This document shows positions 37,565 through 61,844 of a stretch of DNA of 64,000 bases, one piece after another. The stretch is from IMG/VR virus record IMGVR_UViG_3300025471_000688; one strand, given 5' to 3'. The position numbers and the translations under genes were made by a program. Origin of the DNA: an uncultured virus (IMG/VR IMGVR_UViG_3300025471_000688) (lineage: Duplodnaviria > Heunggongvirae > Uroviricota > Caudoviricetes). The notes below the pieces were generated by a model, which saw only the letters and a list, made by a program, of their open reading frames with translations, was not told the origin of the DNA and ran no database searches. Numbering within the stretch: position 1 is the first letter of the stretch; each line of letters starts with the position of its first letter.

Positions 37565-37565
37565 C

Positions 37566-38714
37566 TCAGGCCGCTTCCTTCTGGGCGCTCTCCGCTCCTC
37601 CGGCAAGCAGCGGCTCCAGCAGGTGCGCCGCAAGGAACCGGACCACCGGGACGACGACGCCGTCGCCGGCGAGGTGGTAGGCGTCATTGTAGTTCGCCGG
37701 CAACTTGTAGGTTTCGGGAAGCCCCATCAGCCGGGCGGCCTCGCGCGGCGCCAGCAGCCGGGACCGAACCTTCCTCCCTTCGACGATCATGATGATTTGC
37801 CGGCTCGACCCGCCAACTGGCGTTCGCAGGCATCCCGAGACATCGTCGAAGCGGATTTCCGCTCGTTGTACTCGGCTTCCATTCTCATCTTGGCGAGTGC
37901 GTTTGTAGATTCCGCCGACCATCCGCTTCCCGATTCTCATGGCCTGCTCAACTTTCTTGCGGTTGATCGGGCTCATCAGGCTGATGAGGCGTTCGGTCTC
38001 CGCCGCCGTGTGCCAGGACACTCCTTGCGGTTCGTCTTCGATCACATCGGCGAATCTCAACTTGCGCGCAGGAGGCGCCGGCAAGCTCCACCACACCCAA
38101 GCGTCCTTCGACCGCTCGGACAACTTCTCATAGGCGCTCACCAGATTCTCGGGATGCCAAAGAGGGCCGGCCTCGGGCAATGCGAGGTTTGCGGGGACTA
38201 CTTTCTCCTTGCGCAGCGCCACGACGAACAATCGGGGCCGGGACTGCGGCACAAATCGCACCGCATCCATCACCAGCGCGCCGAAACGATAGCCGCCACC
38301 CGCAAGCGCGGCGCCAATCGCCGCGAAGTCCTTTCCTCCATGAGAGGTGAGTGCGCCGCAGACGTTTTCAAGAACGACGATCGTCGGCGCCCGGCCCTCT
38401 TCCACCAGCGCCTCCATGAGCCGCCAGAAGGGCCAGAATGTCCCCGAGCGCTCGCCTTTCAGCCCGGCGTAATCTCCTGCCAGGGACAGATCCTGGCAGG
38501 GAAACGACGCCCATGCCAGATCGGCGCGGCCCGGAAGGTCCGCCGTGGTCAGTTTGCCCACGTCCTCGATCTTGAGGCGCTCGCGCCCCCAGTTCGCCTC
38601 GTAGCTCGCGCCTTTCTTCGTGTCGATATCGTTGGCGAACAGGCACTCCCAGCCGTCGCCGAGCCCGGCTCTCGCCAGGCCGCCGCCTGCGAAGAACTCA
38701 TAGAAGGTCGGCAT
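37566..38714 (-). CDS. dcm: DNA cytosine-5 methyltransferase
   Basis: EFFAGGG, WASFPCQDLS, LENV, QSRPRLF, REAARLMG. Confidence 0.93.
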   Translation of the reverse strand: MPTFYEFFAGGGLARAGLGDGWECLFANDIDTKKGASYEANWGRERLKIEDVGKLTTADLPGRADLAWASFPCQDLSLAGDYAGLKGERSGTFWPFWRLMEALVEEGRAPTIVVLENVCGALTSHGGKDFAAIGAALAGGGYRFGALVMDAVRFVPQSRPRLFVVALRKEKVVPANLALPEAGPLWHPENLVSAYEKLSERSKDAWVWWSLPAPPARKLRFADVIEDEPQGVSWHTAAETERLISLMSPINRKKVEQAMRIGKRMVGGIYKRTRQDENGSRVQRAEIRFDDVSGCLRTPVGGSSRQIIMIVEGRKVRSRLLAPREAARLMGLPETYKLPANYNDAYHLAGDGVVVPVVRFLAAHLLEPLLAGGAESAQKEAA

Positions 38715-38719
38715 GCGCT

Positions 38720-38923
38720 CTACTCCTGCCCTTTGAACAGTGGCCACTTCTGCGCGAGATACTGTTCCGCCGTCTCCCGCACAACCCACGCCAACGAGAC
38801 TTTCTTTTCCTTGGCGATGCCCTCGAGCACCTTGTAGACGTCGGGCGGGAAGCTGATCGACGCACGCACGGCGGCGTTGCTCTGAACCTTCTCTCTCTGC
38901 CGCGCTCCCTCTTTGGTTTTCAT
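38720..38923 (-). CDS. CopG/RHH transcriptional regulator
   Basis: RASISFPPDVYKVLEGIAKEKKVSLAWVVRE. Confidence 0.8.
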   Translation of the reverse strand: MKTKEGARQREKVQSNAAVRASISFPPDVYKVLEGIAKEKKVSLAWVVRETAEQYLAQKWPLFKGQE

Positions 38924-38931
38924 GTCCGAAC

Positions 38932-39408
38932 CTAGCGGTTATCGTTCTTCACCACATTACACCATATCGGTGAATCCGGGAAGTGGCTGTAGGCGGACGG
39001 CTCCGGACAGCCCGCAAGCCTTTGCCACTCCAGCCTTTGTTCGTCCCAACGCACGATCTTGGCGATCCTCCTCAGCGCTGCCTCGCTGAAGGGCGCGCGG
39101 CCGGAGGGCGGCAAACGCAGCACGGCCTTCTGGATGTCCGGCGCGAGCCAGACGAGCATCATGATCTGGCTGATCCGCTCGCGGCTGACACATCCCAGGC
39201 GCGCCAGATCCGCGTAGTCGCGCACCTCGCCGCTGTCGATCATCTCCTGAAACTGAAGCGCCAGCGCCAGCACCTGCGCGGCACGCGGGTAGCGCCCAGT
39301 CCGCCGCACCGCCGTCACCGTGGATTCCGTAGCCCGCTCCGCGCGTTGGATTTCCCGCACGGTTGGCCTCAGCTTGAACCTCACCTCGAACAGGCTGCTC
39401 GCCGCCAT
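38932..39408 (-). CDS. Recombinase-associated HTH protein
   Basis: LALALQFQEMIDSGEVRDYADLARLGCVSRERISQIM..LAPDIQ; a type typically seen next to large serine recombinases. Confidence 0.7.
   Translation of the reverse strand: MAASSLFEVRFKLRPTVREIQRAERATESTVTAVRRTGRYPRAAQVLALALQFQEMIDSGEVRDYADLARLGCVSRERISQIMMLVWLAPDIQKAVLRLPPSGRAPFSEAALRRIAKIVRWDEQRLEWQRLAGCPEPSAYSHFPDSPIWCNVVKNDNR
38998..39020 (+). repeat. 23-bp direct repeat, right copy
   Basis: CGGCTCCGGACAGCCCGCAAGCC. Confidence 0.85.
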
Positions 39409-40967
39409 TACTTTCCTGTGACCTCCATGCAAAGCTGCTTAATCGCCGCGGTCCGGAAGCCAACCGTCACCTCGCCGCTGCGGCCGTCGTACGTCACCTG
39501 CTCGACCAGGGTCTTGACGAACTTCTCCTGCTCGCGCGGCGTCATCTCGGCCCACAATCGGTCAAACTCACGCAGGGTTCTGCGGACGTCGGCCACGTCC
39601 ACCGTCTGGCCCACCCATTCGGCCAACTGGTCGCGAACCTCGCGCAGTTTTCGTTCAAGCACTGCCGCGCGCTCCTGCACCTCGGCCATGCGGTCCACCG
39701 CCAGTTTGCCGCCCGTCCGCACGAGGCCCGCGAGTTCCTGGCTCAGCCGTTCGAGTTCGCGCTCGATCAGCCGCTTCTCGCGTTCCAGGGTTTCGATGTC
39801 GCCCACGCGCTGCTCGCCCAGCGACTCAACAACCCGATCCACGACACTCGGGTTGGCGGCGATGCCGCGGATCTGCTCGATGACCGCCTGTTCGATCGCG
39901 GGCGCCGAGACCGAACGCGTGGGGCACTGGTTGTAGCCTTTCTGGTGTGCGTTCACGCAGACGTAGTAGCGGTAGAGCTTGTTCGGCGTCTTCTGCGTGT
40001 AGGTGTGGACCATGCCCGCATCGCAACTCGCGCAGCGCAGGATGCCCTTGAGCACCGCACCATACTTGTTGCGCACCTGGCGTCCGCCGGTCCTGCCGTT
40101 GTAGCGGAGGCGGTCCTGCACCCGCTGCCAGATTTCGGGATCGACAATGCCCTCGTGCTCGCCGTCGTAGATCTGGCCACCGTATTTGACCTTGCCCACG
40201 TAGACCATGTTCGTCAGCAGGTTGTAGAGCCGGTTCTTGGCAAACGGCTGGCCGCCGGCAACCGACCCTTTGCGCGTGGTCCATTCCTTCATCCGCCAGC
40301 CGCGCCGATTCAGTTCCTGCACCACTGGAATCAGCGAGCCGTGCTCGAGATAGAGATCGAAGATGGCCCGGACGCGCGCGGCTTCGTCTTCGTTCACCAC
40401 CAGTGCGCCACCGCGATCGCTCAAGTCGTAGCCGAGCATCGGAATCCCGCCTACCCAGCGGCCTTTGCGCCGCGCGGCCGACATCTTGTCCCGGGTGCGT
40501 TCGGCGATCATCTCCCGCTCGAACTGGGCGAACGAGAGGAGGATGTTCAGCGTCAGGCGCCCGAGCGAGCTGGTCGTGTTGAATTGCTGGGTGACCGAAA
40601 CGAAGCTGACGCCGTGCTTGTCGAGCACCTCCATGATCCGCGCGAAGTCGAGCAGGGACCGCGTCAGGCGATCTACCTTGTAGGTCATCACGCAGTCGAC
40701 CAGCCCGTCGCGCACGTCCTGAAGCAGCTTCTGCAACGCGGGACGGTCCATGTTGGCGCCGGTGTAGCCGCCATCGTCGTAGTGATCGGGCAGCGCCACC
40801 CATCCTTCGCCGCGCTGGCTGCGGATGAAGGACTCGGCCGCATCTCGCTGCGCGTCGAGGGTGTTGAACTCCTGATCGAGACCTTCCTCGGTCGACTTGC
40901 GCGTGTAAATCGCGCAGCGTACTGTCGAGCGCCGGGGAGTTGCAAGCGAACCGTTACCGTCGGCCAT
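39408..40967 (-). CDS. Large serine recombinase (integrase)
   Basis: CAIYTRKS (catalytic Ser), DRLTRS, AQFERE, recombinase domain, Zn ribbon CASC...YYVC. Confidence 0.95.
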   Translation of the reverse strand: MADGNGSLATPRRSTVRCAIYTRKSTEEGLDQEFNTLDAQRDAAESFIRSQRGEGWVALPDHYDDGGYTGANMDRPALQKLLQDVRDGLVDCVMTYKVDRLTRSLLDFARIMEVLDKHGVSFVSVTQQFNTTSSLGRLTLNILLSFAQFEREMIAERTRDKMSAARRKGRWVGGIPMLGYDLSDRGGALVVNEDEAARVRAIFDLYLEHGSLIPVVQELNRRGWRMKEWTTRKGSVAGGQPFAKNRLYNLLTNMVYVGKVKYGGQIYDGEHEGIVDPEIWQRVQDRLRYNGRTGGRQVRNKYGAVLKGILRCASCDAGMVHTYTQKTPNKLYRYYVCVNAHQKGYNQCPTRSVSAPAIEQAVIEQIRGIAANPSVVDRVVESLGEQRVGDIETLEREKRLIERELERLSQELAGLVRTGGKLAVDRMAEVQERAAVLERKLREVRDQLAEWVGQTVDVADVRRTLREFDRLWAEMTPREQEKFVKTLVEQVTYDGRSGEVTVGFRTAAIKQLCMEVTGK

Positions 40968-41466
40968 TCTTCTTCTCCGTCAGCCCAAAGAAGAGCAGGC
41001 CATTCCACTTGGCGCCCGTGATCTCCTGGGCTATCGCGCTCAGCGACGTGTACCGCCGGTTGTCATACGCGAAGCGCCCGTCGTCGAGGACCTGCACGAC
41101 GTGGGTCCTGCCCTTGTATTGCTTCACGATCACCCCGCCTGGCATGGGCAGCCGCGGATCGTGATCGGGCTGAATCGTCGCAACCGTTGTCTGCTCAGGC
41201 GGGAGGCCAGCGCGGCGCTTGCTGGCGTTGGTGGTCACGCGGTTTCGCAAGGGCGTGTCGCGCGCGATGGCGCGAGCCAGTTCACGAACCTCGTCAGGCT
41301 GCCAGCCCTCTTCTTCGGCCTGCAATCGCCAGGCGATCTTGCGGAAGAGGAACCGCCGGTGCGCGCTCACCGGCTCCTTGCCGAAGACCTTGAGATGCTC
41401 TTCGCGCAACGCCGGCACGTTCATCGCGGCGAGCGCGGCGATCCGATCCCGGAGCGTCTTCTTCAT
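40954..41466 (-). CDS. DUF2924 domain protein
   Basis: LFRKIAWRLQ, PG..IVKQYKG, SLSAIAQEITGAKWNGLLFFGL. Confidence 0.88.
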   Translation of the reverse strand: MKKTLRDRIAALAAMNVPALREEHLKVFGKEPVSAHRRFLFRKIAWRLQAEEEGWQPDEVRELARAIARDTPLRNRVTTNASKRRAGLPPEQTTVATIQPDHDPRLPMPGGVIVKQYKGRTHVVQVLDDGRFAYDNRRYTSLSAIAQEITGAKWNGLLFFGLTEKKNGRR

Positions 41467-41651
41467 GCGTCAACCTCACTGACATGAAGGCTCTCCGGGC
41501 GCGGGTTATCAAGTTCTCCGTTGACGGTTTCGGGCGCATCTTTGGCGGCGGTTTCGATGCGCCGGGCGCGCCGGTAGCGCTGGTAAGCGGTGGCGAGGAG
41601 CTGGGCAATCTCGGCGACAGCTTCGCGCGTTCGTCGGTCTCGGAAATCCAT
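41463..41651 (-). CDS. Small conserved protein of the recombinase cassette
   Basis: EIAQLLATAYQR...LDNPRPESLHV; 4-nt overlap with DUF2924. Confidence 0.6.
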   Translation of the reverse strand: MDFRDRRTREAVAEIAQLLATAYQRYRRARRIETAAKDAPETVNGELDNPRPESLHVSEVDA

Positions 41652-41710
41652 GGGCGCCGGTCCTTCCGGCCCACAACGGCTTCCGCTTTGCGGCCACGCG
41701 CGCTGCCTGG

Positions 41711-41750
41711 CTCTGTCAATAAATACTCACGCGAGTTCGAAAGTGTCCAA
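41711..41750 (-). promoter_or_regulatory. Putative phage promoter, copy 2 (TTGGACA-N12-CGTGAGTATTTATTGACAGAG)
   Basis: Matches 21090-21129. Confidence 0.6.
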
Positions 41751-42000
41751 CCGGGCTACGCTCTCAACCGGCCTGTCAACAAACGCGGACCTGTCAACGG
41801 AGAAAACGGAGAGTTTGAAGGGTTCAGAGAGGCCAACGAACCGAACCATGATGGTTCAGCGCGTGGCCCGCTCGGAGGCGTTTCCAACCGGAGAACCGCG
41901 CCGAAACGCAAATACTGGCGAATGTTTGGGATAACGCGCGGCCGCAAGAGGCGCTGGCGTCAAGCAAAACGGGGCGGCGGGAAGTTACGGTTTTTGGGTG

Positions 42001-42030
42001 TGGCTCCCCGTCGTGGACACGTTTCGAACT
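42001..42030 (-). other. att-like junction carrying a tRNA 3' end (tRNA-Asn-like)
   Basis: Minus strand GT-CCACG-ACGGGGA-G-CCA reads as T-loop end, T-stem, acceptor stem, discriminator G and CCA; no tRNA 5' part upstream; next to the recombinase cassette. Confidence 0.6.
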
Positions 42031-42125
42031 CTGGTGGCTTGCCCGCCGCCGGAGATCGCGGAGGTGTTCCAACAGATGCAAATGCATATGGAGACTTGAG
42101 GTTAAGTTCAGCCTTTCTGAACAGA

Positions 42126-44054
42126 TTAGGCGCCGGAGGAATAAGTAAGCGACGGAACGAATAGTCCAAGACCAAAATGGCAGAACTGCCCGATCGCAAA
42201 AGGTCGCGACGGACGCCGGGACGAAAATCTGATTCTAAGCATCATGCCGGGACCCTTGGCTTGATCATCTTCCGTGCGGATGCGATGGAATGCCAGAGCC
42301 GGCACGAAGCGCTGGCCATTGGAGACATACAAGCCGCGGCTCAGGCCAAGAGGGGACGCTTGGTCCGGGTCTCGCGTGCAGGCACGCGGATAACGGATGG
42401 GATCCATCCCGGTCGCTGGAACGGGGAGGGGAGCATTCAATGAGGCGATCAGGAAGCCGCCGCGCTGTACTACGGTCTCGCCCGAGGGGCCCTGGAGATC
42501 CGTTTGTACGTGTGTAAGAAACTCCTGGCGTGGGTCGGATGCCTTTACGGATCCCAGAGATGACGGGTCGTAGTCGAACACAATCTCGTCAATTTCATCG
42601 GGCGTCGGCAATCCGATTTGTGAAAGAGACTGGCGGATCTGGTCTTTGAGAGAGCGGGCTCTCCCGGACCGCCCTCTAAGATGAACGGGGCAAAAGTAAG
42701 GAGTGGCTGAGATGAACTCCGATGCTGTATCGGCCTCGGCGAGACGAGTGGGGCACTCTTCCCATTTGCCTTCGAAGGCTGGCGTAAGTAGGAGACTAGC
42801 CCGGGAGCCAGCTTGCTCAATGCGATTAAGCGTGAGCAGTGCGGTCAAGTCTCTTTCAGAGAAGCCGTCCTTACATAGCACAATGAGGTGATCGAGGAAG
42901 CCATCGCAATCTTCGTCGACTGGCCACCAAAAGGCGTGCGCCGAGTGGCTGCCGTTTTCGCTCCCGAACTTCACGACCTGTTCGCCATCTGCCTCGGAGA
43001 AAAGCTGATACCGTTGCGCATCGTCACGATATCGCTTTCCCGAGAGTTGCGGCGAACAGAAGCCACCGTTTTGTCGGGCAAAAATCGCCATCGCGGCGGC
43101 ACGGCATCGCTGGGCAATTGCCAGTGTCGCTGTCACTGGCGGCAGAGTCGCACGATGTACAGTGGCGGTATTCAAAACATATCGGACCACCTGCCGCTCG
43201 CGCCTTGGACCCAATTGATTTTCCGCGTTCGCGTTTCGACCAGTAGTCGTCCGAACCGGCAAGCGAAGAACCTGCTTCGGCACCGCGTAATGCAGCCAGC
43301 GTGTCCCCCAGGGTCGATCCCCGGATTTCATAGACTGGGCGGTCGGTTGAAGCAACGCGCGTAAAAGAAGCTCAGGGGCATCAGCGGTTGGCACTTTAAA
43401 CTCCTCTTTCAGAAACGCGCACTCAGCCGGATCCCACCCCAACCGCTTTTCGACGGTATAGTCGCAATGCTCGCGCCACCCGCGGTTTTCGAAATGCTCT
43501 TTGAACGCCCCATCGTCTTCCGTAGCCACACAGGGCCAATGGATTTCCGACTGGAACCCTTCGGTCGCAACATCGGCATTGCACCATGACTCCGCGCGAC
43601 CGAAGTAAAGCAGCCGTGAGACCAACGAGTTCAGATTTTTCGTCTCTTGCTCGTCCAGGTCCACATTCGACCACTCGAAGACAAGGGGATGCTCGGGATC
43701 AACGGCCGCAAATGTGTCGAAAGTCTGCGTGCCGGGCCTTTCGCCAGATTTGATTGCAAAGAAATGGCGGGTATGCCCGATGCCTGTAGCCGGAAGCCAC
43801 ACTACAGGTGGATCGGTCAGCTTGTGCAACAACGCAGCCAATGTCGTGAGCGGAAGAGCGTCTACATGCTTTGCACAAAATTGGTAGCCCGGCTCAGGAA
43901 GGGTGGTTAACCCTCGCCCTGCAACTGCAACAAGGGCCCTCAGCAGGCGCCAAGGCGACGGCGGCCATTCGACGCGACCCTCGTTAGGAGCCGCGTGCCA
44001 AGGGTGCAGATGCGCCCTGCCCGTGAGAAATCGGATGTGGATTGAGGCTGCCAT
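42126..44054 (-). CDS. csb2: Type I-G (I-U) Cas5/Cas6 fusion protein
   Basis: 642 aa; GRAHLHPW..NEGRVEWPPSPWRLLRAL, YFGRAESW, SATPY, C-terminal G-loop GQFCHFGLGLF. Confidence 0.9.
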   Translation of the reverse strand: MAASIHIRFLTGRAHLHPWHAAPNEGRVEWPPSPWRLLRALVAVAGRGLTTLPEPGYQFCAKHVDALPLTTLAALLHKLTDPPVVWLPATGIGHTRHFFAIKSGERPGTQTFDTFAAVDPEHPLVFEWSNVDLDEQETKNLNSLVSRLLYFGRAESWCNADVATEGFQSEIHWPCVATEDDGAFKEHFENRGWREHCDYTVEKRLGWDPAECAFLKEEFKVPTADAPELLLRALLQPTAQSMKSGDRPWGTRWLHYAVPKQVLRLPVRTTTGRNANAENQLGPRRERQVVRYVLNTATVHRATLPPVTATLAIAQRCRAAAMAIFARQNGGFCSPQLSGKRYRDDAQRYQLFSEADGEQVVKFGSENGSHSAHAFWWPVDEDCDGFLDHLIVLCKDGFSERDLTALLTLNRIEQAGSRASLLLTPAFEGKWEECPTRLAEADTASEFISATPYFCPVHLRGRSGRARSLKDQIRQSLSQIGLPTPDEIDEIVFDYDPSSLGSVKASDPRQEFLTHVQTDLQGPSGETVVQRGGFLIASLNAPLPVPATGMDPIRYPRACTRDPDQASPLGLSRGLYVSNGQRFVPALAFHRIRTEDDQAKGPGMMLRIRFSSRRPSRPFAIGQFCHFGLGLFVPSLTYSSGA

Positions 44055-44056
44055 GT

Positions 44057-45070
44057 TCAGGCACGGTCGAGTTCGAACGGCTGAAATCCCCCGGCTCCTC
44101 CCGTCAAAGACGGGGGTAGTTTGTTCGCCTTGGGGAATACCGCTTGTCGTCGATTTTGGGTGAAGGCGGCCTTGATGGTTGTGCGCAAATCGTAGTTGAT
44201 CGTGGGGACGAAATCGGGGTCCAACACGCACGCGGTGCGTAGGCGCGGAAACGACTGGATGAGCTTACGTACCTTGTAGAGCGCGAAAGATGCCAGGAAA
44301 TTCCGCTCTTCGTTATCAAGACCCCACGAGTTCAATGTGTCAGTGTGGAAAGTCAACTGAAGCTTGATATCGCTCGATGCAAAATGCTGGGTGCTATATG
44401 GGATGCTGGCTTCTGAACCCGCGGCCGTGACGTAGCCGCGCATGACACCACCGGCGTTCACGGCTTGAGGCTCCTTGGCTGTAATCGTTGCCGACAGTAG
44501 CCGCGGAAACCGTATGCGCCCATCGAGTCTTTCCAGAAAGACTCCGTGCAGGAGGCAGGCAGGATCGATGTAGAAGAGCCGTTTGGCGATTCTTGGAAGG
44601 TAGACAGGCCGATCTTTGTCTACCTGCAACAGATCTTTAAAAGTTTTTCGGTCTGGGTGCTTGTCATCGCGCCCGACAATCTCATCTGATGCCAACCGAT
44701 GGGGTTCCGTTAACGAGCTTGTCCAGTCCATATTCTTACCATTTACCTTTTTGCGGACGACCACGTATGGGATTCCAGCGCAGTCGTTGTTGTAGCGGCA
44801 TGGATGTTGAGGATCGAGACACAAGGCCTCCATCCAGTTCGCGAGGGACTGCGCCGATTCGACGAGGAGATAATCGGTGACGCCGCCATCATTCATGGCC
44901 TTGTAGAGTGCCGGTCCGAGATTCGGAAAGCCAGTCGGCTGGAATCGCTTGTCAAAACCTTCGGCGACTTTGAGCCGCACCGGCAAGTACCAGCGGCGCG
45001 ACGCGTTCAACAGGGTATCTGGAGTGATTGAACTTGTTTGTGTGTTGTTACTGGATTGCTGTGTGCTCAT
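44057..45070 (-). CDS. csb1: Type I-G Cas7 backbone subunit
   Basis: RFQPTGFPNLGPALY, LLVESAQSLANWME, EPHRLAS, DPACLLHGVF, RFPRLLS, RLRTAC. Confidence 0.9.
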   Translation of the reverse strand: MSTQQSSNNTQTSSITPDTLLNASRRWYLPVRLKVAEGFDKRFQPTGFPNLGPALYKAMNDGGVTDYLLVESAQSLANWMEALCLDPQHPCRYNNDCAGIPYVVVRKKVNGKNMDWTSSLTEPHRLASDEIVGRDDKHPDRKTFKDLLQVDKDRPVYLPRIAKRLFYIDPACLLHGVFLERLDGRIRFPRLLSATITAKEPQAVNAGGVMRGYVTAAGSEASIPYSTQHFASSDIKLQLTFHTDTLNSWGLDNEERNFLASFALYKVRKLIQSFPRLRTACVLDPDFVPTINYDLRTTIKAAFTQNRRQAVFPKANKLPPSLTGGAGGFQPFELDRA

Positions 45071-47744
45071 CATGATCATCCTCTTGAACAGGTTTAATAA
45101 TGAGCCTCGCCAGGTCGGCTGGAAAAGCGATTGGCACGAGGAGAAGCCCGGCGAGGCGAAGGCAGTCCCGCGGACGAATTGCAAAACCGGCTGAGAAGCT
45201 TTGGCTCGTCGCGAACAATGGCGGGTAGCCAATCGCGTGGAGCCGGCGCGCCGCTGCAATGCAGGCATCATTGCATCGTCCGGCCAAAAGCAGATTCAGA
45301 ATATGCAGATTGCCAGGCGCATGCGGCTCCTGGCCCGTACGTCGAGCACCGGGACGGGCCGGCAGTCTGCCGCCCAAGAAGCACAATTTCAGGAGAGTGT
45401 AGGCGCGTGGCAGTTGCGCTGCTACCTCGAAGCGGGAAAGCCAATCTTCTTCACCAGCTTCGAGTGTGTCAGGCTCATTTTCTTCAGCCTCGTCGGCAAC
45501 ATCTTCTCCTTCGATGTCGGCCATTTCACTGCTTCCGCCGGGTTCTGGTTGGACTGCCTTGACCTTGTGCCAAGAACGGATTAAGGCGAAGGCATACAGC
45601 AACTCACTCAATCGCTGGTCATTCACTTCACCGCGCCAGAGTGCAATCACATCTTGCGCGTCAGCTCCGTAGGGCGAAAAGAGCGGCAATCCTTCGCCGG
45701 AACCGGCTTGAGCATCGACTAGGCGCCGGTGCAGCACGGACGCGCAATTGCTCAACGCCTCTCGCCCCCATGTCCAGACGGCGCGGCGGCTTTCCGGTTC
45801 CCAATTCCAGAATGCTCCGCCTTCCGAGCGGACTTGACGAACCAGATTCTCCCGGATCGCGCCCACTGCAGCCGACTCAGTTCGCTTGGAAGTTTCGGGC
45901 TTCCTGCCCCATGGACAAATCGTCCCCAGCGCTCTAGCAAGTCGCCATTCCGGCGTGCCGTCGTCAAACAAATCCGCCCGCTTCGGCGGCACTGCCGGTG
46001 CGACATACTGCAACCGGAGCCAGTCATATGAAAGCGACGGCGCACAGGGGACGTTCGGACCTTCCTCTTTCTTAGGCATCTTTCCTTCGCGATCATGAAT
46101 GCGGCCGTCCGTGACTCCGCATTCGCGATTGAGTGCAGCCGAGGCCACGGCTACTTCCATTAGCTTCGACCGGAAGTCTACCGCTATCTGATCACCTCGC
46201 TCGCCGTGTGATTCGAGACCGAACCTTGAAGCGTTAAAGAGCGCTTCTTCAAAACGGCAACGCGCCAGGATAATCCTGCGCGGCTGTGAATCGCTGTTCA
46301 GGATTGCACGCTGGCCGGAAGCATCGAGCACGTCCTGTTCGTAGTCGAAGAGCTCGTCAAGAAGCGCCAGAACAGAGTTGGCTGCGACGGAGTAGATTCC
46401 GATCGGTACGGCCAGCGTGGTCGTCTGATCCTGGTTGCCGAACGAACCGCTTCGCCGAAGCAGTCCGTATCGCTGGAAGGCGTCGATCCCGCGGTCACAT
46501 CCAAAACGCCCGAGGGCACGGATAAACTGCGTGGCCAACCGGGCCTCACGGCCGTCTATCTGCATACGGCCTTCACTGAAAAGCGCCCGCAGGTCGCGCA
46601 GCGTCGCCGGTTGGGTCCAGATCGGGCACCAGACCTCGCCGGAGGAAATGCTTTTCTTGGATCCTTGGATTTCCGTCGGTCCTCCAGCCGGGTTGCCGCC
46701 CAGGGAGGACGAGCAATAGAAGGGGAAAGCAGGCACGCTCTTCCGCGCGTTCATCCGTCTTGCCATGCTGCCTGCAAACAGCAACACGCCTTCGAATAAG
46801 AGAATTACGTCCCACGCCGCGCCGGTGCGTTTGCTTTCGAAATCCTGACCGCTATTGGGGGTCTCCTTTCGCAAAGGGTAAAAGAGCCCGATCGCGTAAT
46901 CTTCTGACAGATGCCCGCACGTCGAAGCGCCCCACAGCGACGCGCGGAGCCATGACTGGGCGCTCGCTCGCTTTCGCGAAAGGACGTCCGCAAGGGCCAT
47001 CTCAAGGTGCATGATCATGCCGCCGCTGCCCTCAGCGGCCCCCTCCCCGAGCAAGGAAAACCATTCGCGCTCTTTTCCGAACCGGTTCGTAGAGACCTTC
47101 GGATGACCAACAGTGTCCAACCACGTGGTCACCCTGGGATCATTGCATGCATTCCTCGTTCGCTCTATCAAGCGCGCTTGCGCAGCGCTCTTCCTGCCCG
47201 CATTGCGTCCCTGTTCATTCTCGCTATTCAATCCGCGAAACAAATCCGGATCCTCAATCTCTTTCAATGTGTCAACCCATTGCCCCTCGGACGCATTCAG
47301 ATCCAGACCAAATTCTCGTGCAAAGCTTCGAATGGCAGCGCGATATGCCTGCGAGCCGCAAGTACCCGCCCTAACTATGGTGGATAGAGCTTCCTGGCCC
47401 TTCCTGTCGCGATCAATCTTTTTCTGCTTTTTCCTGTCGTAGGGAAGGAAGGCCGTGTTCTTCTGCCACGGAGACAGCAAAGGACTGAACTCACAGGCCT
47501 CGAGCAGAAATGTTTCCAGCCACTCTCGGCGCTCAGATTCTTCGTTTGGGACGGAGCGGCTGTTTTTGCAAGCCTTGTATGAGGCTCCTTCAGGTACCCA
47601 CAAGTGGAAGACGCCGTGGCGCCACCAGCAACGAGCCTGATCGGTAATCTGCTCAGCGACCATCCGGAACACGCCAAGCGCTTTCAGATAATCGCCAAGT
47701 GGCTCAACTGCGCATCCAGGGAGTTGCAGGACGGGCATGATCAC
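45048..47744 (-). CDS. csx17: Type I-G large subunit (Cas8g)
   Basis: LPGCAVEPLGDYLKALGVFRMVAEQ, WDVILLFEG..LFAGS, GEVWCPIW, LFSEGR, RGIDAFQRYG. Confidence 0.88.
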   Translation of the reverse strand: MIMPVLQLPGCAVEPLGDYLKALGVFRMVAEQITDQARCWWRHGVFHLWVPEGASYKACKNSRSVPNEESERREWLETFLLEACEFSPLLSPWQKNTAFLPYDRKKQKKIDRDRKGQEALSTIVRAGTCGSQAYRAAIRSFAREFGLDLNASEGQWVDTLKEIEDPDLFRGLNSENEQGRNAGRKSAAQARLIERTRNACNDPRVTTWLDTVGHPKVSTNRFGKEREWFSLLGEGAAEGSGGMIMHLEMALADVLSRKRASAQSWLRASLWGASTCGHLSEDYAIGLFYPLRKETPNSGQDFESKRTGAAWDVILLFEGVLLFAGSMARRMNARKSVPAFPFYCSSSLGGNPAGGPTEIQGSKKSISSGEVWCPIWTQPATLRDLRALFSEGRMQIDGREARLATQFIRALGRFGCDRGIDAFQRYGLLRRSGSFGNQDQTTTLAVPIGIYSVAANSVLALLDELFDYEQDVLDASGQRAILNSDSQPRRIILARCRFEEALFNASRFGLESHGERGDQIAVDFRSKLMEVAVASAALNRECGVTDGRIHDREGKMPKKEEGPNVPCAPSLSYDWLRLQYVAPAVPPKRADLFDDGTPEWRLARALGTICPWGRKPETSKRTESAAVGAIRENLVRQVRSEGGAFWNWEPESRRAVWTWGREALSNCASVLHRRLVDAQAGSGEGLPLFSPYGADAQDVIALWRGEVNDQRLSELLYAFALIRSWHKVKAVQPEPGGSSEMADIEGEDVADEAEENEPDTLEAGEEDWLSRFEVAAQLPRAYTLLKLCFLGGRLPARPGARRTGQEPHAPGNLHILNLLLAGRCNDACIAAARRLHAIGYPPLFATSQSFSAGFAIRPRDCLRLAGLLLVPIAFPADLARLIIKPVQEDDHDEHTAIQ

Positions 47745-50700
47745 ATCCCTCGTGAGTCTTTCGACGCGCGCTGATCGGCGGCACGAAGCAGCGCCTCCAA
47801 ATAGCCCAGATTAAACGGCCCGAATACTTCAAGCAGCTCAAACATTCGGTCCGACCACGAAGCGCCGTAGCGCGCGGAAAACAGTTCCATCGCGTCAAGA
47901 GACAAGCTGAGGGCCGGCGTCAGAACCGAGCGTTGGGGATCGCTCGGCGCTTCAGGGCATGGCAATCGACACGAAGGGATGATATCTTCATCCTGAACGC
48001 CCTGACATCGCCGAATGTGGCTGGCATCCGGAATAGGGTCCCGCTGGTCAGGATTGTAATCATCTTCCGCGGAGCGCAAGCCAAGCCGAACTTTGCCGTG
48101 ATGACACGCAACCAGAAAGAGGAGCAGGTTGAAGCTCAGCCGGTCAAGTTGGGCGATTTGAGCCACCGCAGCTGCAGCCGCACCACTGTTCTCGAGCACA
48201 GCGTTCTCACCGGCAAGGCCAAGCGCCGCCTTGAGCTCCTCTGCGGCGGCCAAGGCCGGATGTTCGGGGCAACCAAGTCGCAGCAGTTCTAGCAACCCAA
48301 GAGCGCTGGCCAGTTCATGACGAAAGCCTGGACGTCTTTTGAAACAGCGATCTGTTTCCGCTGCATCTTCCTTGTCGTGGAATAAGGATTTCCACGCCGC
48401 TCTTGGAGCTTTTGCGGAGTGATCCGCACGTTCTGGAGCGCTCCACTGGCTACGACCTTCGCTCGTCAGTTTAGCGAAGAATTTTCCGTGGGCTTTCCCC
48501 AAGTCGTGCCACGGTGGCGCATGTCCGAGCGGCGGCCTCAAGCCGGCATTTTCAAGTGCGCTCGAAATCTCATCATCCTCGAGGATCGAATCGAGTTCAG
48601 TCGCCACGCGCACGCTGTGCTTGTGCACGCTCTGCCATTCGGCAACCGCGTTGTCCTCATCGTCCAGACCGCTGTCACCGAAGGCGGCAGGCTCTTCCGG
48701 TTCGCCGTCCTGCAAGACTTGCGCATTTAGTGGTGAGCAAGGCTGAGGAATCGAGTCCGGCTTTCCGGTCCATCCCACCTGTGGGTCATAGCCGCCCACA
48801 TCTTTGTGTAGAAGAAACATCTGGCCGGGATAGACGCGATCAGGATCAGTTAGTTTGACCCACCCTTTGCGCCAGTCGCGGACCCATACGCGGTTACGTA
48901 GTTCGGAACTCAAGCCTTTGAAGAATTCTCGGAACTGCCATGCTGGTACGGCACAGAGCTCGTCGCGTGCCGGCAGAAGCTTCTTGAAAGGACACCCGGC
49001 TCGTGGACCGCTTTTCCATATCTCGCCTGAACCGAGCCCGGAATCGTTATCGCGCCAGAAGACCAGCACATCGAGGTCCTGGCCATCTCGGATGAAGGGG
49101 CTAATGTCGATGTCTGCGCCGGACAGATCCGGCGTTGTATCGAAAAGGTTGAACAAATCGCGCCTCTGAGGGATGAGTCGCGGATCGAATGGGAGCGCAT
49201 CACGAACTTCCTGGCAGTCGGCCAGATTGTCCCGGCCAATAAGACTATTGAGCGCCCGCCCTAAAGACACATCAATGGGCGCCGCGGCGTTTATCAGGGC
49301 TCTTCGAGTCGCGGCAATTTCGCCGGGATCGTAGGGACGTGCGCATTTGATCTGCCGATCTGAAGGGTCGCTACCATCCGATTCGAACACTTCGAAATCT
49401 ATCCAGAACGCCTGGCCAGTTTCGCCGGCGCGCCGGGCGCATCGGCCGAGACGTTGAATTAGCGATGCCAGGGGGCAGAGCTCTGTGTAAAGCACCGAAG
49501 CGGAGATATCCACTCCTGCCTCGATGATCTGAGTGGCCACGATGATACGTGCACCAGAATGCTGCCCTTCGCCCTTCTCAAAAGCCTCGAACTTTTGACG
49601 CCAATTGGCCCGCTCATATCCTCGAAAGCGCGAGTGAAGCAAAAGAAGATGATCCTCATCAAAGAGGCGATCCTCCGAGCCGTTCTTCTTTAGATCCTTG
49701 AGAGCTTTGTAAACCGCGGTGGCGCGCCCCACGGTATTGCAGATGATAAGAGCAAGGATGTCCTCGCTTTCTTCGGTATCTGCGGCCCTCCGCTTTCGTT
49801 TGCGGTTGATCGGCTTGGCCAGGTGCTTTGCGAGAGCACAGGCATACTTCGTTGTTCCGCTGTCATCCGGCGATTCTGGCATGATGACCGAACACCGGCT
49901 CAGCACCTTCGGGATTCGGAACAGGTCTTGGGCTTCGTTCTGCCGATCCAACGTTAAGCGGTCCCGCCATAAGGCGGCTGCTTGACTTCCCATTGCCACG
50001 GATTTCTTGAACCAGTGCTCCGCAGAAGTCGCGCTCATCCACCAACTGTGGGTGGCTAATATCGTTGGTTGACTGTTGCTTAGTTGGTTCTCAAACGGAC
50101 GGCGTTGCAGGGGGAGGTTGGATCGCCACGCCTGAAGCTGGAGGCTGGTTGTGAAGCCGCTGCTCATGAGCTGCACTTCATCCAGTACCCATAGGCAGTC
50201 CGTGTTCAGCAAGCCAAAATGCATTGGCCACCGATACCGGCTCATGCCGTAGCCCCGGTTAAGCGCGCGGGAGAGCAGCATGTCCTGCGTGCCGATGACA
50301 ATCGCTGGTTTCTCCGGATACAGATCCCATTGACGTCGGCACTCATCGAGTTCCTCCCCGCCCATCAGCACAATCGGTGAATATTCTGCGAGCCAGATGA
50401 AATTCGCGGTTGCTGAAGCTGGAAGGAGGTTGAACAGAAAGCCCTCGATTGGGGTTTCGTGCCCGCCGTTCCGGATCGGTGCACGGACCTCTCTTGCCAC
50501 TCTGTCATTGAGCGTCCCCAACAACGCGTCAACTTTGGCCCGTTCCGGCGTATTGTCCTGCGTCGCCGCCAGATTCAAGCGCAGCATCCACGGCAGAATG
50601 TCCTTCTCGACGACCTGGTTCACCAGGGCGCGCATCGGAAGGCAGTAAACTAGGCGCCTGGGCCAACCTTCCATGTTCAAAACCACGCGGTTCCACAACC

Positions 50701-50974
50701 AAGCAAGGACAGTGCCGGCAGTCTTGCCGCAACCGGTTGGGATGTCGATGAGTCGTGATCTGCACTCGTCGCCGGTCTGCAAGGTTTCCGCGCGGGCCGC
50801 TATCGCATCCGTGCCGCACGCGAGGCGAGCCTGCCAGTCCATGGGTTCGAAGCCGGTTGCGACGGCAACGAACGTCCGGAAATTGATTTTATTTTGCAAC
50901 ATCAGAGCGCCGGAAGCCACTTGCCCGGCTTCGTCGTCCAGGTTGGCCGCACCTGGAAGGGTTTGCACAGGCAT
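47741..50974 (-). CDS. cas3: Type I-G Cas3: SF2 helicase with C-terminal HD nuclease
   Basis: PTGCGKT, GTQDMLLSRALNRGY, DEVQLM, SAT, QRLGRCAR; HD motifs HDLGKAH, FRHELAS, HHGKVR, LRAADQRAS; start may be 50902. Confidence 0.93.
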   Translation of the reverse strand: MPVQTLPGAANLDDEAGQVASGALMLQNKINFRTFVAVATGFEPMDWQARLACGTDAIAARAETLQTGDECRSRLIDIPTGCGKTAGTVLAWLWNRVVLNMEGWPRRLVYCLPMRALVNQVVEKDILPWMLRLNLAATQDNTPERAKVDALLGTLNDRVAREVRAPIRNGGHETPIEGFLFNLLPASATANFIWLAEYSPIVLMGGEELDECRRQWDLYPEKPAIVIGTQDMLLSRALNRGYGMSRYRWPMHFGLLNTDCLWVLDEVQLMSSGFTTSLQLQAWRSNLPLQRRPFENQLSNSQPTILATHSWWMSATSAEHWFKKSVAMGSQAAALWRDRLTLDRQNEAQDLFRIPKVLSRCSVIMPESPDDSGTTKYACALAKHLAKPINRKRKRRAADTEESEDILALIICNTVGRATAVYKALKDLKKNGSEDRLFDEDHLLLLHSRFRGYERANWRQKFEAFEKGEGQHSGARIIVATQIIEAGVDISASVLYTELCPLASLIQRLGRCARRAGETGQAFWIDFEVFESDGSDPSDRQIKCARPYDPGEIAATRRALINAAAPIDVSLGRALNSLIGRDNLADCQEVRDALPFDPRLIPQRRDLFNLFDTTPDLSGADIDISPFIRDGQDLDVLVFWRDNDSGLGSGEIWKSGPRAGCPFKKLLPARDELCAVPAWQFREFFKGLSSELRNRVWVRDWRKGWVKLTDPDRVYPGQMFLLHKDVGGYDPQVGWTGKPDSIPQPCSPLNAQVLQDGEPEEPAAFGDSGLDDEDNAVAEWQSVHKHSVRVATELDSILEDDEISSALENAGLRPPLGHAPPWHDLGKAHGKFFAKLTSEGRSQWSAPERADHSAKAPRAAWKSLFHDKEDAAETDRCFKRRPGFRHELASALGLLELLRLGCPEHPALAAAEELKAALGLAGENAVLENSGAAAAAVAQIAQLDRLSFNLLLFLVACHHGKVRLGLRSAEDDYNPDQRDPIPDASHIRRCQGVQDEDIIPSCRLPCPEAPSDPQRSVLTPALSLSLDAMELFSARYGASWSDRMFELLEVFGPFNLGYLEALLRAADQRASKDSRGM

Positions 50975-51026
50975 CTATGAGTCCCTTGCCAATGTTCAGG
51001 ATTCAAGCGTCTGATAATATCACCAA

Positions 51027-51410
51027 TCAAGGCGTTCGCGAGCGGGGTCCGTGGTTGGATTCCAACTGAGATATGTCGGAGAAGAGTGCGTGAATAGTCG
51101 GCTCAAGCCAATGTCGATCGGTTGCGACACCATACCCGTCCCACAGTTGGAGGGCTGCCTTGATGCGCGTGATTTCCGCGTCATTGAACTCGAATTCCTT
51201 CGCCGGAATCGAGAGCGCTGGGTTCCAGACGACACGCTCCTGGCCGGCGACGATCTCCCGCTTCAGTTCGATGGCCCTCTCCTCGTCGGCACTCAGTGCA
51301 AGCCGGTCCTGGATGGCCCAGATCGCGCGGATGGAACCCACGTCTGCCCGCTGCGCGCCCAGGAGCGCGTGCAGGTTCAGACGTTGGGTATGGTCCAGCA
51401 TCAGTTTCAT
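51027..51410 (-). CDS. Small protein after the tail fibre (fibre chaperone?)
   Basis: 127 aa from MKLMLDH; RBS AAAGGA. Confidence 0.55.
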   Translation of the reverse strand: MKLMLDHTQRLNLHALLGAQRADVGSIRAIWAIQDRLALSADEERAIELKREIVAGQERVVWNPALSIPAKEFEFNDAEITRIKAALQLWDGYGVATDRHWLEPTIHALFSDISQLESNHGPRSRTP

Positions 51411-51421
51411 TTCGTCGTCCT

Positions 51422-53710
51422 TTACGGGTTGGAATAGAGCAGAATGTAGCCCGCCGTGACCCCGGCAGGGTTCTTGACCTTGATCACGCCAGACCATCCG
51501 GAGGGATTGCTGGCGCTCATTAATTCCGCGAAGCGGTAGCCGTTGCCGGAGCCGCCGGCGAGGATGAGTTCGCCGCCGGACGTGACTTGCAAGAGCGTGT
51601 GATCGGCGAGGTTCGATCCAGGGCCCGCAACGCGGAAAGGTGTTTCCACATTGTCCTTCGCCGCGACCAGCAGCGGGCCGCATGCAACTCCGGCCGAGAC
51701 CGGCGCCGCCTGGTAGCCCCACGTGCGGGCGTATCCTTTCTTCGGGTCGTTGCCCTCCTGGAGACACGCGCCCCAGAGCAGGATGGAGCCGCTGGTCCAG
51801 TCGTCGCTATTGCCGTCGAACTGGCGCACGACGATCCACAAGCCGGTCTGGCCCGCCGCCAGGGTCCCGGTGATCTTGAAGCGCTGCCACGTGGTCGTGA
51901 GCGTGATCTGCGTCGGGCCGGCGAGGTACGCAACATAGGCATTGTCCACGATGGCGATCGAGACCTTGCGCGTTCCGGACGCCACGCGTGCCCAGATGTA
52001 GAACGTGTACTGGCCACCAGAGACGAGGCCTGCGATCTGCTGCTGGATGATGGGCGTGGCGGTGACAGCGTCGATCTGGTCGGCAGTGGCGTTGCCATCG
52101 GGCGCGGTGGCTGCGTTCGTGGTCACGGCACACGACCCGCCGTTCTTGTCCCAGGTCGCCACCGAGAAGTCCTCGGAGTACTTCGCCATGTTTTCAAAAG
52201 CGCTACCAACAGTCCCATAGGCTCCGCACTCGATGGACTGGAAATGCGAGTCGAGGTATGCCCACAGGTTGTTGGCGGCGGCATAGGCGAAGCTGGCTCC
52301 GCCCGATGCATCGCGCAGCACCACTGTGCTCGCCGTCGCGTTTGGAGTGGCGTCGCCGATTTCCGCCGACGCGTGCGTGTGCGAGGGCAGATCGCTCGCC
52401 TGGAGCGCTGCGACGGTCACGGCCGCCCCTGCGCTCGCCTGCCTCAGAAAGCCCGGGCCGCTTGCCGAAAGATCCGCTCCCGTGCCGCCGCGCGCCAGTG
52501 CCAGCGCGCCGGAAACGACGTCCGATGCGACGTGCGTATGGCTCGCGTTAGCCTTTGCTGCGGATGAGCCGTCCACGAGCACGCAATCACCGCCGTTCCC
52601 GACTGCCGCATCAATCGCTCCCGAGGAGTTGATGACGGCTGTGCGGGAAGGCGCAAAGCCAGGCCCTTTGAGCGGCCGCGCGGCCAGGTCGGTCACGAGG
52701 CCCACCACGTCGGATTCGGCGTGGCTGTGACTGCCGAGAGACAGCACGCCGGCCGCGAGCGACAGGCCGGAGCCGATACTCAACTCGGCGAGCGTGTCCT
52801 GGGAAGGCGAATAAAGTAGCTTGTTCGCCGCGATGGTCGTGAGGCCGGTGCCGCCGCGCGGCACGGCAAAGGCGCCGTTCACGATGTCGCTTGCGACGTG
52901 CGGGTGGGCGGGCAGATCCGATCCCGAAAGCGAAGTGCCGACCGTGACGCGGCCCTTGGCGTCCACGGTCACCTTCGAATAAGTTCCGGGCGTAGCGCCG
53001 GAGTTCGCCAGCGAGATTACGCCGGCGTTCACCGCGATCCCGCCGACCGGATCGACCTGGACGATGCCCTTGCTGGTGGTGGTCGCGTCCGGGTAGGAGA
53101 ACGCCCCGAAGGTCTGGCCGGGGGCGAAGTCGATGATCGCATCGAAGGCGACGTGATCGTTGGCGTTGAGGGCCATGCCGAGGTCGCCCGAGCCGTCGGC
53201 CTTGCGCCACTTGATCGCGCCGGCGTTGGGCAGGCGCACCAGGCCGGTCGCGGCCTTCATGCCCGAGCCGAACTCGGCTCCATCGACGAACGTCTTTACG
53301 CCAGTGATCGTGACGGCGCCGTCGCGCCGCACGTAGTTGCGCGCGGCCACAGTCCCAAGCTCGTTTTCGATTGCGAGCACGGCAGATTGAAGCGCGGTGA
53401 TGAACGCCGAGACCATGTTGGCCTTCACCGCCACGCCCTGCGCGTGTTGCGCCGCCGTGGTGCCGAAGGCCCCGCGCTGGCAGCCCGTGAACTGGGTGGC
53501 GGTTTTGGAGACGTAGACGATCAGCTCGTCGTCAATCGAAAGGATTCCATAGGAGGCCGCGAAGCCGTCCGTCGAGGCAACGCTGATCGTCGTATCGCCC
53601 GCGAGGATCTGCTGCGTGGCCGTGGTTTCGAGCGGACGCGTCGAGAAGGCGTCCACGGGCGAATACAGCGTCGCCGCGCTGTCGATCAAATTCGGATAGC
53701 TGCTACTCAT
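51422..53710 (-). CDS. Tail fibre / receptor-binding protein
   Basis: 762 aa; A/G/T/S-rich; GTYSKVTVDAKGRVT; four HxH repeats; carbohydrate-binding-like C-terminal domain. Confidence 0.75.
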   Translation of the reverse strand: MSSSYPNLIDSAATLYSPVDAFSTRPLETTATQQILAGDTTISVASTDGFAASYGILSIDDELIVYVSKTATQFTGCQRGAFGTTAAQHAQGVAVKANMVSAFITALQSAVLAIENELGTVAARNYVRRDGAVTITGVKTFVDGAEFGSGMKAATGLVRLPNAGAIKWRKADGSGDLGMALNANDHVAFDAIIDFAPGQTFGAFSYPDATTTSKGIVQVDPVGGIAVNAGVISLANSGATPGTYSKVTVDAKGRVTVGTSLSGSDLPAHPHVASDIVNGAFAVPRGGTGLTTIAANKLLYSPSQDTLAELSIGSGLSLAAGVLSLGSHSHAESDVVGLVTDLAARPLKGPGFAPSRTAVINSSGAIDAAVGNGGDCVLVDGSSAAKANASHTHVASDVVSGALALARGGTGADLSASGPGFLRQASAGAAVTVAALQASDLPSHTHASAEIGDATPNATASTVVLRDASGGASFAYAAANNLWAYLDSHFQSIECGAYGTVGSAFENMAKYSEDFSVATWDKNGGSCAVTTNAATAPDGNATADQIDAVTATPIIQQQIAGLVSGGQYTFYIWARVASGTRKVSIAIVDNAYVAYLAGPTQITLTTTWQRFKITGTLAAGQTGLWIVVRQFDGNSDDWTSGSILLWGACLQEGNDPKKGYARTWGYQAAPVSAGVACGPLLVAAKDNVETPFRVAGPGSNLADHTLLQVTSGGELILAGGSGNGYRFAELMSASNPSGWSGVIKVKNPAGVTAGYILLYSNP

Positions 53711-61837: not shown

Positions 61838-61844
61838 CTGCTGG

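Follow-up and report, generated by a model that had tools for sequence, protein, structure and literature searches.

An array-less type I-G CRISPR-Cas effector cassette on a prophage and its possible use of host CRISPR RNAs

A type I-G cassette at the junction of two tandem prophages

The IMG/VR virus record IMGVR_UViG_3300025471_000688, from an uncultured member of the Caudoviricetes, provides a stretch of 64,000 nucleotides (hereafter the window) that contains, at positions 42126-50974, the effector module of a type I-G CRISPR-Cas system. The module, 8.9 kb long, consists of four co-directional, closely packed open reading frames (ORFs) on the minus strand, where nearly every other gene of the window also lies: cas3g, cas8g1 (csx17), cas7g (csb1) and csb2 (Table 1). 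All four proteins score above their NCBIfam cut-offs, and the Pfam and PADLOC assignments are concordant. Cas3g matches TIGR02621 at 597.8 bits over residues 31-1072 (cut-off 400) and the PADLOC Cas3g model at 624.4 bits, and Cas8g1/Csx17 matches TIGR04113 at 335.2 bits (cut-off 150). Cas7g/Csb1 reaches 60.4 bits with TIGR02570 (cut-off 38) and 89.7 bits with Pfam Cas_GSU0053 (PF09617; cut-off 25), and Csb2 reaches 90 bits with TIGR02165 (cut-off 45) and 289.7 bits with PADLOC Cas56g. These scores, the open frames and the phage genes on the flanks confirm the intact cas3-csx17-csb1-csb2 operon on phage DNA that a preliminary description, made from the sequence by eye, had proposed.

The catalytic features of the nuclease are preserved. 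Alignment of motifs places helicase motifs I, II, III, V and VI at residues 79-514 of Cas3g and the HD motif at residues 823-824, in agreement with the earlier statement that both are retained. Motif II reads DEVQ, as opposed to DEAH in the Cas3g that the host encodes itself; DEVQ is common to 19 of the 20 aligned relatives, array-bearing ones included (the other, L062, has DELQ), and is therefore no defect. When columns at least 90% conserved across 14-16 array-bearing relatives are taken as the conserved set, 85-90% of them are retained in the window: 200 of 221 in Cas3, 125 of 147 in Cas8g, 39 of 45 in Cas7g and 118 of 139 in Csb2. Three histidines in the C-terminal (Cas6) half of Csb2, H373, H389 and H626, are also kept, and are conserved in 14-15 of 15 array-bearing relatives. 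No solved chain was matched in a phmmer search with the window Csb2.

A database protein, P0001, is 100% identical to the window Cas8g1 and likewise 896 amino acids (aa) long. The long cas7 and csb2 ORFs overlap the genes before them, and the starts in Table 1 are the probable ones; for cas7g this is the ATG at 45079 or that at 45070, 3' of AAGAGG. The cas7 frame stays open for about 65 codons 5' of the probable start, overlapping the end of cas8g, as it does in all close relatives, and tblastn matches of these relatives to the long cas7 frame span residues 4-404. This 5' stretch could be a by-product of the overlapped cas8 frame or a genuine extension.

Table 1 Features of the cassette and of the adjoining prophage DNA, in window coordinates
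Feature	Position	Strand	Remarks
62-aa ORF, DUF2924 protein, large serine recombinase	41651-39408	-	Integrase end of prophage A; 62-aa ORF at 41651-41463, DUF2924 gene next
Non-coding spacer, 474 bp	41652-42125		Between csb2 and the recombinase operon
csb2	44054-42126 (ORF open to 44231)	-	Cas5-Cas6 fusion, precursor CRISPR RNA processing subunit; 642 aa from ATG 44054
cas7g/csb1	45079-44057 (ORF open to 45271)	-	Backbone subunit
cas8g1/csx17	47738-45048 (ORF open from 47744)	-	Large subunit; 896 aa from ATG 47738
cas3g	50974-47741	-	1077 aa; N-terminal superfamily 2 (SF2) helicase, C-terminal HD nuclease
Leader	50975-51024	-	50 bp upstream of cas3; travels with the cassette
127-aa ORF	51410-51027	-	Last gene of the prophage B tail-fibre module; no family match
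Two tail-fibre-like genes (762 aa, 1157 aa)	51422-57176	-	Prophage B

The window holds two tandem, partly related prophages, here called A and B. Positions 38001-58000 recur at 100% identity on a 29-kb contig of a near-identical host genome, G001, and a second virus record, G002 (59,790 bp), corresponds to window positions 32613-64000 with 28.4 kb of further sequence. Prophage B runs from an integrase at the far right through the tail fibres (57176-51422) to the cassette, and the integrase operon of prophage A follows. The earlier placement beside tail-fibre genes thus stands, as does its upstream gap of about 50 bp (52 bp separate the stop of the 127-aa ORF, at 51027, from the cas3 ATG), and the att-like site that it named belongs instead to the junction with the second of the two prophages. 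The downstream gap, previously put at about 95 bp, is actually 474 bp to the 62-aa ORF and 659 bp to the DUF2924 gene, so that the conclusion that no room is left for an array was wrong: 474-659 bp of non-coding DNA are available, though no repeat lies in them.

The cassette lies within phage DNA, at a position whose content differs from one related phage to the next. It begins 3 bp past the stop of the last tail-module ORF. On contig C2 of G001 a related prophage is 88-92% identical over the tail and fibre genes, loses homology at 51079, inside the 127-aa ORF, beyond which the slot is filled by another low-GC cargo, with VWA proteins and an HTH_17 protein. An independent rhizosphere run (X4) yielded a 9324-nt contig that covers 42004-51214 with 64 differing letters and joins the 127-aa ORF to the cassette; read depth in this run is about 25 over the cassette and 0.07-3.5 over the recombinase stretch of prophage A. 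A contig from a soil run (X3) tracks the cassette to 41921 before diverging, as the X4 contig does at about 42004. The X4 contig and depth and the X3 divergence therefore tie the cassette to the fibre side. Judged from where the two contigs diverge, prophage B meets prophage A about 120-200 bp beyond csb2, close to an imperfect palindrome of 26 nt (41824-41876). The 474-bp spacer, which also holds several GTTGACAG-like words at about 41720-41800, is probably this junction; a 69% match of the spacer region to contig C110 of G001 was not reproduced by blastn.

The cassette is in all probability terminal cargo of a temperate tailed prophage, B. It could instead belong to prophage A or be a chromosomal islet trapped between the two. 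Long direct repeats are not left behind by serine integrases, which makes the ends unmappable, and G002, although rated 100% complete, takes in most of one prophage together with the integrase and restriction-modification end of the other, so its borders are unreliable. In the metagenome locus L118 (4342-6848), moreover, a DUF2924 and serine-recombinase pair, the recombinase 63% identical to that beside the cassette, adjoins the cas3 of an array-less I-G module that is distantly related (Cas8g about 31% identical), a recurring neighbourhood. Against a location outside prophage B stand the 3-bp distance to the tail module, the alternative cargo in the same slot, the joining contig with its contrast in depth and the rarity of the cassette in the host family (below), where it is no conserved locus. 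We regard such a location as quite improbable.

Possible guide sources on the element and in its host

No array was found on the element by any of several approaches. Tandem and direct repeat finders (including Tandem Repeats Finder) returned nothing array-like in the 64-kb window, a k-mer array scan of it found no array, and a search for two-copy 28-mers (at most 5 mismatches, 50-90-nt spacing) gave none that was array-like while detecting a positive-control array. An Rfam scan of the window gave 0 matches. We also built a covariance model of the I-G repeat from nine array-bearing relatives and two host arrays; it recovered a solitary repeat in one relative (L047, 35.8 bits). With filters off, its best match in the window scored 12.4 bits (E 0.29) within a coding region, and it found no repeat in the rest of prophage B or in ten close-relative loci. 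The 474-bp spacer after csb2 contains no CRISPR-like repeat by repeat finders, covariance model or 28-mer scan, and an array of ~36-nt stem-loop repeats with a ATTGAAGC-like tail, of the kind found on the host chromosome, is present neither in the window nor in the rest of prophage B. A candidate copy of the host repeat within the phage was rejected, since its best match (22/36) equalled that in 5 shuffles. A promoter and terminator scan gave no more matches than shuffled sequence.

Adaptation genes are missing as well. Searches of the window with Cas4g/Cas1g and Cas2 by tblastn returned nothing better than E 0.16, and a Cas1 search of G002 found none. The absence of cas1, cas2, cas4-cas1 and an array from the 64 kb, first noted by eye, is upheld by these repeat, model and tblastn scans. 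The array and cas1 negatives together cover the window and the remainder of prophage B, about 40 kb, rebuilt from G002 and contig C30 of G001, and no cognate array lies in that part of the element either.

The host presents a different picture: the phage is array-less, as first described, and G001 carries I-G arrays. This genome has a chromosomal I-G system of its own, with another Cas8g variant. On contig C14 a second Cas3g (784.6 bits) lies in a locus of the order cas7g-csb2-cas3g-short Cas8g (NF049934; PADLOC Cas8g PDLC01514), and the end of contig C93 carries cas2, a cas4g/cas1g fusion (NF049935, 765.8 bits) and an array with the repeat ATTTCCGCGGTTGATCAACCGCGGCCCCATTGAAGC. The four effector families of the I-G system are all in the cassette, and the Cas4-Cas1 fusion and Cas2 are found only elsewhere in G001, on C93. 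The C93 repeat also opens contig C32, and a loop variant of it forms a 26-repeat array on C83; in all, the covariance model finds 45 repeat matches in G001, in at least two arrays. These arrays are chromosomal and flanked by housekeeping genes. The host system is itself divided, with effector genes on C14 amid housekeeping genes and adaptation genes and arrays on C93, C32 and C83. A weak solitary repeat-like match (27.9 bits) was also seen on C14 (L022:8327-8363), on the opposite strand in a 960-bp gap upstream of the host cas7g.

The short-Cas8g variant occurs in 35 of 201 genomes and is the common I-G system of this bacterial family. Five of seven such loci show an array, in the order cas8short-cas2-cas4/cas1-array or a near variant, with the same repeat family. 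Repeats of nine array-bearing Csx17-type loci from several phyla and those of the host have a common 8-bp stem and a CC.CATTGAAGC tail. We also considered whether prophage A had severed the operon from a cas4/cas1, cas2 and array set of its own, and rejected this: no remnants of such genes lie in the 659 bp after csb2, the genes before the C93 adaptation module are ordinary chromosomal ones (DUF362, a transporter, a TonB receptor), and that module fits the native short-Cas8g variant in the order seen in other genomes.

An array-less lineage and the case for borrowed guides

Searches with Cas8g gave 76 database homologues, several of them named Csx17, and gene context was drawn from 15 genome and 62 metagenome loci. 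The distant relatives (Cas8g 30-41% identical; Verrucomicrobiota, Planctomycetota, Halobacteria and others) are mostly canonical, with cas4/cas1, cas2 and arrays alongside. The close relatives (54-98% identical) comprise nine loci and one contig of a second family genome (G188:C690), and in none of their available flanks was Cas4/Cas1, Cas2, an array or a model match found; only L063 and L064 have substantial flanks, of 6.8 kb upstream and 2.1 kb downstream in the former and of 5.8 and 4.9 kb in the latter. A Cas8g tree of 43 rows places the window in a clade of seven with 100% support in the Shimodaira-Hasegawa-like approximate likelihood ratio test (SH-aLRT) and a long stem, and the adjoining clades include array-bearing loci. 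Adaptation genes or arrays accompany 0 of these 7, and the three with usable flanks all lie on mobile elements: this phage, a Tn7-like transposon (L063), and a region with a tyrosine integrase and an HTH_17 protein upstream and IS21 downstream (L064). The proposed check of whether the closest homologues are array-less and att-adjacent thus came out array-less in all available flanks and mobile in all three assessable cases. Other array-less loci (L117/L119, L118) are scattered among array-bearing ones.

The transposon locus lies on a metagenome contig, and its Cas8g and that of the window are 78% identical. At L063:422-6149, directly upstream of its array-less cas3-cas8g1-cas7g-csb2 operon, come a 923-aa tnsA/B-like fusion, an ATPase of the TniB/TnsC kind and TniQ, and its Cas3 is intact. 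A 16-nt word occurs in eight copies on the two sides of the unit (348-393 and 16292-16491), against 0.01 expected. Judged by gene content, this is a putative Tn7-like element carrying a module predicted to be nuclease-competent.

The cassette is under purifying selection. Ratios of nonsynonymous to synonymous substitution rates (dN/dS), estimated by the Nei-Gojobori method against L042 and L061-L064 for all four genes and against L066 for cas8, cas7 and csb2, are 0.11-0.33 across the four genes; the exceptions are a partial csb2 comparison over 114 codons, at 0.48, and one comparison in which dS was saturated. The dN/dS test suggested earlier thus speaks for purifying rather than relaxed selection. 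As these values come from a lineage in which no array was found, the array-less state is old enough for selection to have acted on it.

This bears on whether the cassette is simply in transit, a mobile defence cassette that recently landed in a phage slot and lies idle because its Csb2 and Cascade reject host CRISPR RNAs (crRNAs). Its GC content of 57-58%, compared with 60-67% over most of the window, is consistent with recent arrival, as is the extent of DNA homology to its relatives, which is confined to the operon and the 50-bp leader: it runs from 51024 down to 43889 in the nearest relative (L042, whose contig ends there) and stops at 42145-42192 in L061-L064. The cassette is sporadic, being found in 2 of the 201 family genomes (G001 and G188, both of which also hold the native I-G variant), and mosaic relative to L066, with cas8 98%, cas7 85% and csb2 65% identical. 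It is greatly diverged from the host effector, and in the X3 run its depth of 10-29 contrasts with about 950-4200 over the neighbouring tail-fibre genes, so that most related phages there are without it. On the other hand, the four genes are open, the catalytic motifs are retained, selection has acted within a lineage showing no array, and near-identical copies turn up in sequencing runs from several studies. That the cassette is idle and in transit is a serious but unlikely explanation.

A guide carried by the element itself, non-canonical or solitary and unlike the known I-G repeats, could serve warfare between elements or Tn7-like target choice. The unexplained non-coding DNA after csb2, the conserved leader that accompanies the operon, the transposition genes and bracketing words of L063, and lineage-specific substitutions at conserved Csb2 positions would fit such a guide. 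Yet homology among close relatives ends 20-70 bp before the csb2 stop and never reaches the downstream spacer, direct repeat pairs are absent from all flanks scanned, a scan for a hairpin plus handle found nothing above noise, and the L063 Cas3 is intact, unlike in known RNA-guided transposons. We hold this explanation to be improbable.

We lean instead towards a cassette of the Cas8g1/Csx17 variant that is confined to interference, resides on a prophage and loads host crRNAs in trans, because the host I-G arrays are the only visible source of guides and their repeats belong to the family found in the array-bearing relatives of the cassette. The Csb2 of the cassette would cut precursor crRNA transcribed from the chromosomal I-G arrays of the host, Cas7g and Cas8g1 would assemble on the resulting crRNAs, and Cas3g, an integral subunit in subtype I-G, would degrade matching DNA. 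New spacers would be supplied by the Cas4g/Cas1g and Cas2 of the host. The lysogen would gain a second, highly divergent effector working from the same immune memory, and the prophage would be helped to exclude competing phages and plasmids. The lineage to which the cassette belongs passes among mobile elements without an array. Use of host crRNAs in trans had been among the first suggestions; the cas2, cas4g/cas1g and arrays of G001 and the common repeat family lend it circumstantial support, and the loading itself we infer.

Several observations weigh against borrowed guides. The phage and host I-G proteins are very divergent (by BLASTP, Cas3 is 26% identical, and this only in the helicase, while Csb2 and Cas7 align barely or not at all), so that compatibility would have to come from repeat similarity alone. 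In the window lineage 21 of the 139 conserved Csb2 columns are altered, among them several Arg and Asp positions and one N-terminal His. All 15 of 15 array-bearing relatives have this His, which is replaced by Ala or Val throughout the close clade; RNA recognition by the cassette Csb2 could thus be shifted. The 24 host I-G spacers examined gave chance matches of 11-20 nt only against 92 kb of both prophages and 72 kb of related prophage contigs, and 450 spacers from 12 other I-G arrays gave matches of at most 20 nt. Contigs from RNA libraries match the cassette exactly, at depths of 2-6 in two runs of one study; they also cover the tail-fibre genes, and for both reasons may be DNA carry-over and give no evidence of transcription. 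Co-occurrence of cassette and native system is known from two mutually related genomes, in one of which (G188) no I-G array is assembled and the two model matches both fall within a duplicated HigA-like gene. Lastly, the searches cover prophage A as far as the left edge of the window, beyond which it continues for about 11 kb.

On contig C769 of G188 (L135:1501-1536, L136:1501-1536) the ORF for a HigA-like antitoxin has at its 5' end a single 36-nt sequence that closely resembles the I-G repeat (35.4 bits), and the contig repeats itself every 2.9 kb.

If crRNAs of the host are indeed loaded, the phage Cascade might act as a sponge that soaks them up and weakens host I-G immunity. The host does have a complete I-G system of another Cas8g variant, for which the same crRNAs would be contested. 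An intact Cas3g would nevertheless cut the same targets, which makes guide loading an addition to immunity; a decoy is expected to lose its nuclease; and a cassette in a prophage shares the interest of the lysogen. Guide sequestration as counter-defence, also put forward at the outset, therefore fits poorly with the intact Cas3, and we judge it highly improbable.

Array-less modules in mobile elements have partial precedents. The type I-F system of phage ICP1 is likewise of type I, carried by a phage and equipped with a Cas3-type nuclease, and it serves in conflicts between mobile elements. ICP1, a Vibrio phage, is reportedly lytic and equipped with its own arrays and adaptation genes; the present element differs in being temperate and in having neither. 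Known RNA-guided transposons of the Tn7-like, CRISPR-associated kind lack Cas3 and carry short arrays. L063 resembles them in its transposition genes beside the same cassette, and differs in its intact Cas3 and in showing no array. The window itself, with no tnsB, tnsC or tniQ among 48 ORFs scanned and an intact Cas3, is not a CRISPR-associated transposon. No I-G transposon appeared in the literature on guided transposons that we searched, and by term count I-G is absent from a 2024 review of CRISPR-associated transposons (PMC11406308).

The nearest functional model is the I-G system of Thioalkalivibrio sulfidiphilus, also of the Cas8g1 variant. According to the available part of its description (PMC9638904), Csb2 cuts precursor crRNA by means of a C-terminal histidine (H503) and remains on the 3' hairpin, Cas3 is a stable subunit held through Cas8g, and the 36-nt repeat forms a stem-loop. 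The likeness, drawn from that description, lies in the same four subunits, Cas3g, Cas8g1/Csx17, Cas7g and Csb2. The T. sulfidiphilus system is chromosomal, with a CRISPR array and with Cas4-1 a few genes beyond csb2 (PMC9638904, same part), whereas the cassette lies in a prophage without these. The array-bearing Csx17-type loci (L043-L056, L076, L083, L084, L115 and more) have the order cas3-cas8g1-cas7g-csb2 and the Cas3 motifs, DEVQ included, and add cas4/cas1, cas2 and arrays of 4-46 repeats, upstream or downstream, all missing from the window clade.

Cas genes without an array have been met in prophages before. A survey of 26,987 prophages, as far as its available text goes, lists 27 complete systems, 7 cas clusters without an array and 212 CRISPRs, and proposes trans use of arrays for separated cas and CRISPR loci (PMC7145637). 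The cassette resembles these orphan clusters, among which I-G (then I-U) is not named in that text. A siphovirus-like contig from Atacama endoliths, Ignimbrite_2ct2, matches the cassette in its gene list, with four consecutive CRISPR proteins (Csx17, Cas3, Csb1 and Csb2) and no array reported; in the accessible part of the 2022 virome paper it is tabulated only as a clue to the host, and arrays, host systems, lineage and selection are not analysed (PMC9500819). Among the papers listed by our literature search on type I-G CRISPR and prophages, none concerned a phage-borne I-G system. Cas8g searches of 50,697 GenBank phage records and 72,556 PLSDB plasmids gave no match, and the only IMG/VR match was this same element. 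The array-less phage cassette is therefore of a rare, not an unprecedented, kind. What is new here is the loss of the array at the level of a lineage that has retained its nuclease, the different mobile carriers, the purifying selection and a host with arrays of a compatible family.

A more far-reaching reading, which we offer tentatively, is that of a dedicated lineage of guide-less I-G Cascade-Cas3 modules which would have abandoned array and adaptation genes for life on mobile elements (a temperate phage, a Tn7-like transposon, integrative elements). Against rivals of the element, such modules would pirate the CRISPR memory of any I-G host that they enter, and in the Tn7-like relative they might even direct the choice of target.

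Further contents of the prophages and implications

The genes around the cassette are those of tailed phages. In the tail-fibre-like genes of prophage B, matches to PHROG tail-fibre and baseplate families (1e-11 to 1e-14) accompany CBM_4_9 and TIM-barrel_NCTSP domains. The G002 extension adds a J-like tail protein, tape measure, head closure protein, protease-capsid fusion and portal, both terminase subunits, a ParB-methylase, a primase and a helicase. Contig C30 of G001 prolongs prophage B with an AbiU gene, a second restriction-modification set, regulators and, at the far end, a second serine recombinase. The integrase end of prophage A is recognized by Pfam DUF2924 (129.9 bits) and by the Resolvase, Recombinase and Zn_ribbon_recom families. 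Further to the left come a restriction-modification set of C5 methylase, DUF4928 and Vsr, replication genes, several methylases, and a terminase gpA, portal, S49 protease and E-type capsid.

The C5 methylase and DUF4928 set occurs in both prophages at 88% identity (window 36222-38789; G001:C30, L058:2933-8039). Vsr was seen in prophage A only, and prophage B adds AbiU and the candidate defence gene PDC-S36. From these genes and the restriction-modification sets it follows that the phages are rich in defence cargo beyond the cas cassette. Positions 57360-62336, between the J-like and fibre genes of prophage B, hold a HipA-like kinase, a 134-aa fragment of a gpA terminase, a 205-aa fragment of a DUF5906 primase and a low-GC stretch (54%), and have the look of remnants left by another element that inserted into the tail module. 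At 29809-31953 an intein that bears a homing-endonuclease domain of the LAGLIDADG type splits a PD-(D/E)XK nuclease gene (Pfam Intein_splicing, LAGLIDADG_3). Clusters of 9-11-nt words, TTGGGGACC and its complement CCAAGGTCCCC in both orientations, at 21977-22295 in the 3' end of a 1160-aa primase gene, look like iterons and may mark a phage origin of replication.

If host guides are borrowed as we propose, the cassette would be a natural nuclease-competent type I effector that is portable among mobile elements and plugs into the resident CRISPR memory. This would bear on lysogenic conversion against competitors and on how divergent effectors of the same subtype coexist in one genome. The cassette also offers a compact four-gene I-G module from an under-studied phylum, and its use of host guides would give a direct gauge of how far I-G Csb2 and Cascade tolerate foreign repeats.

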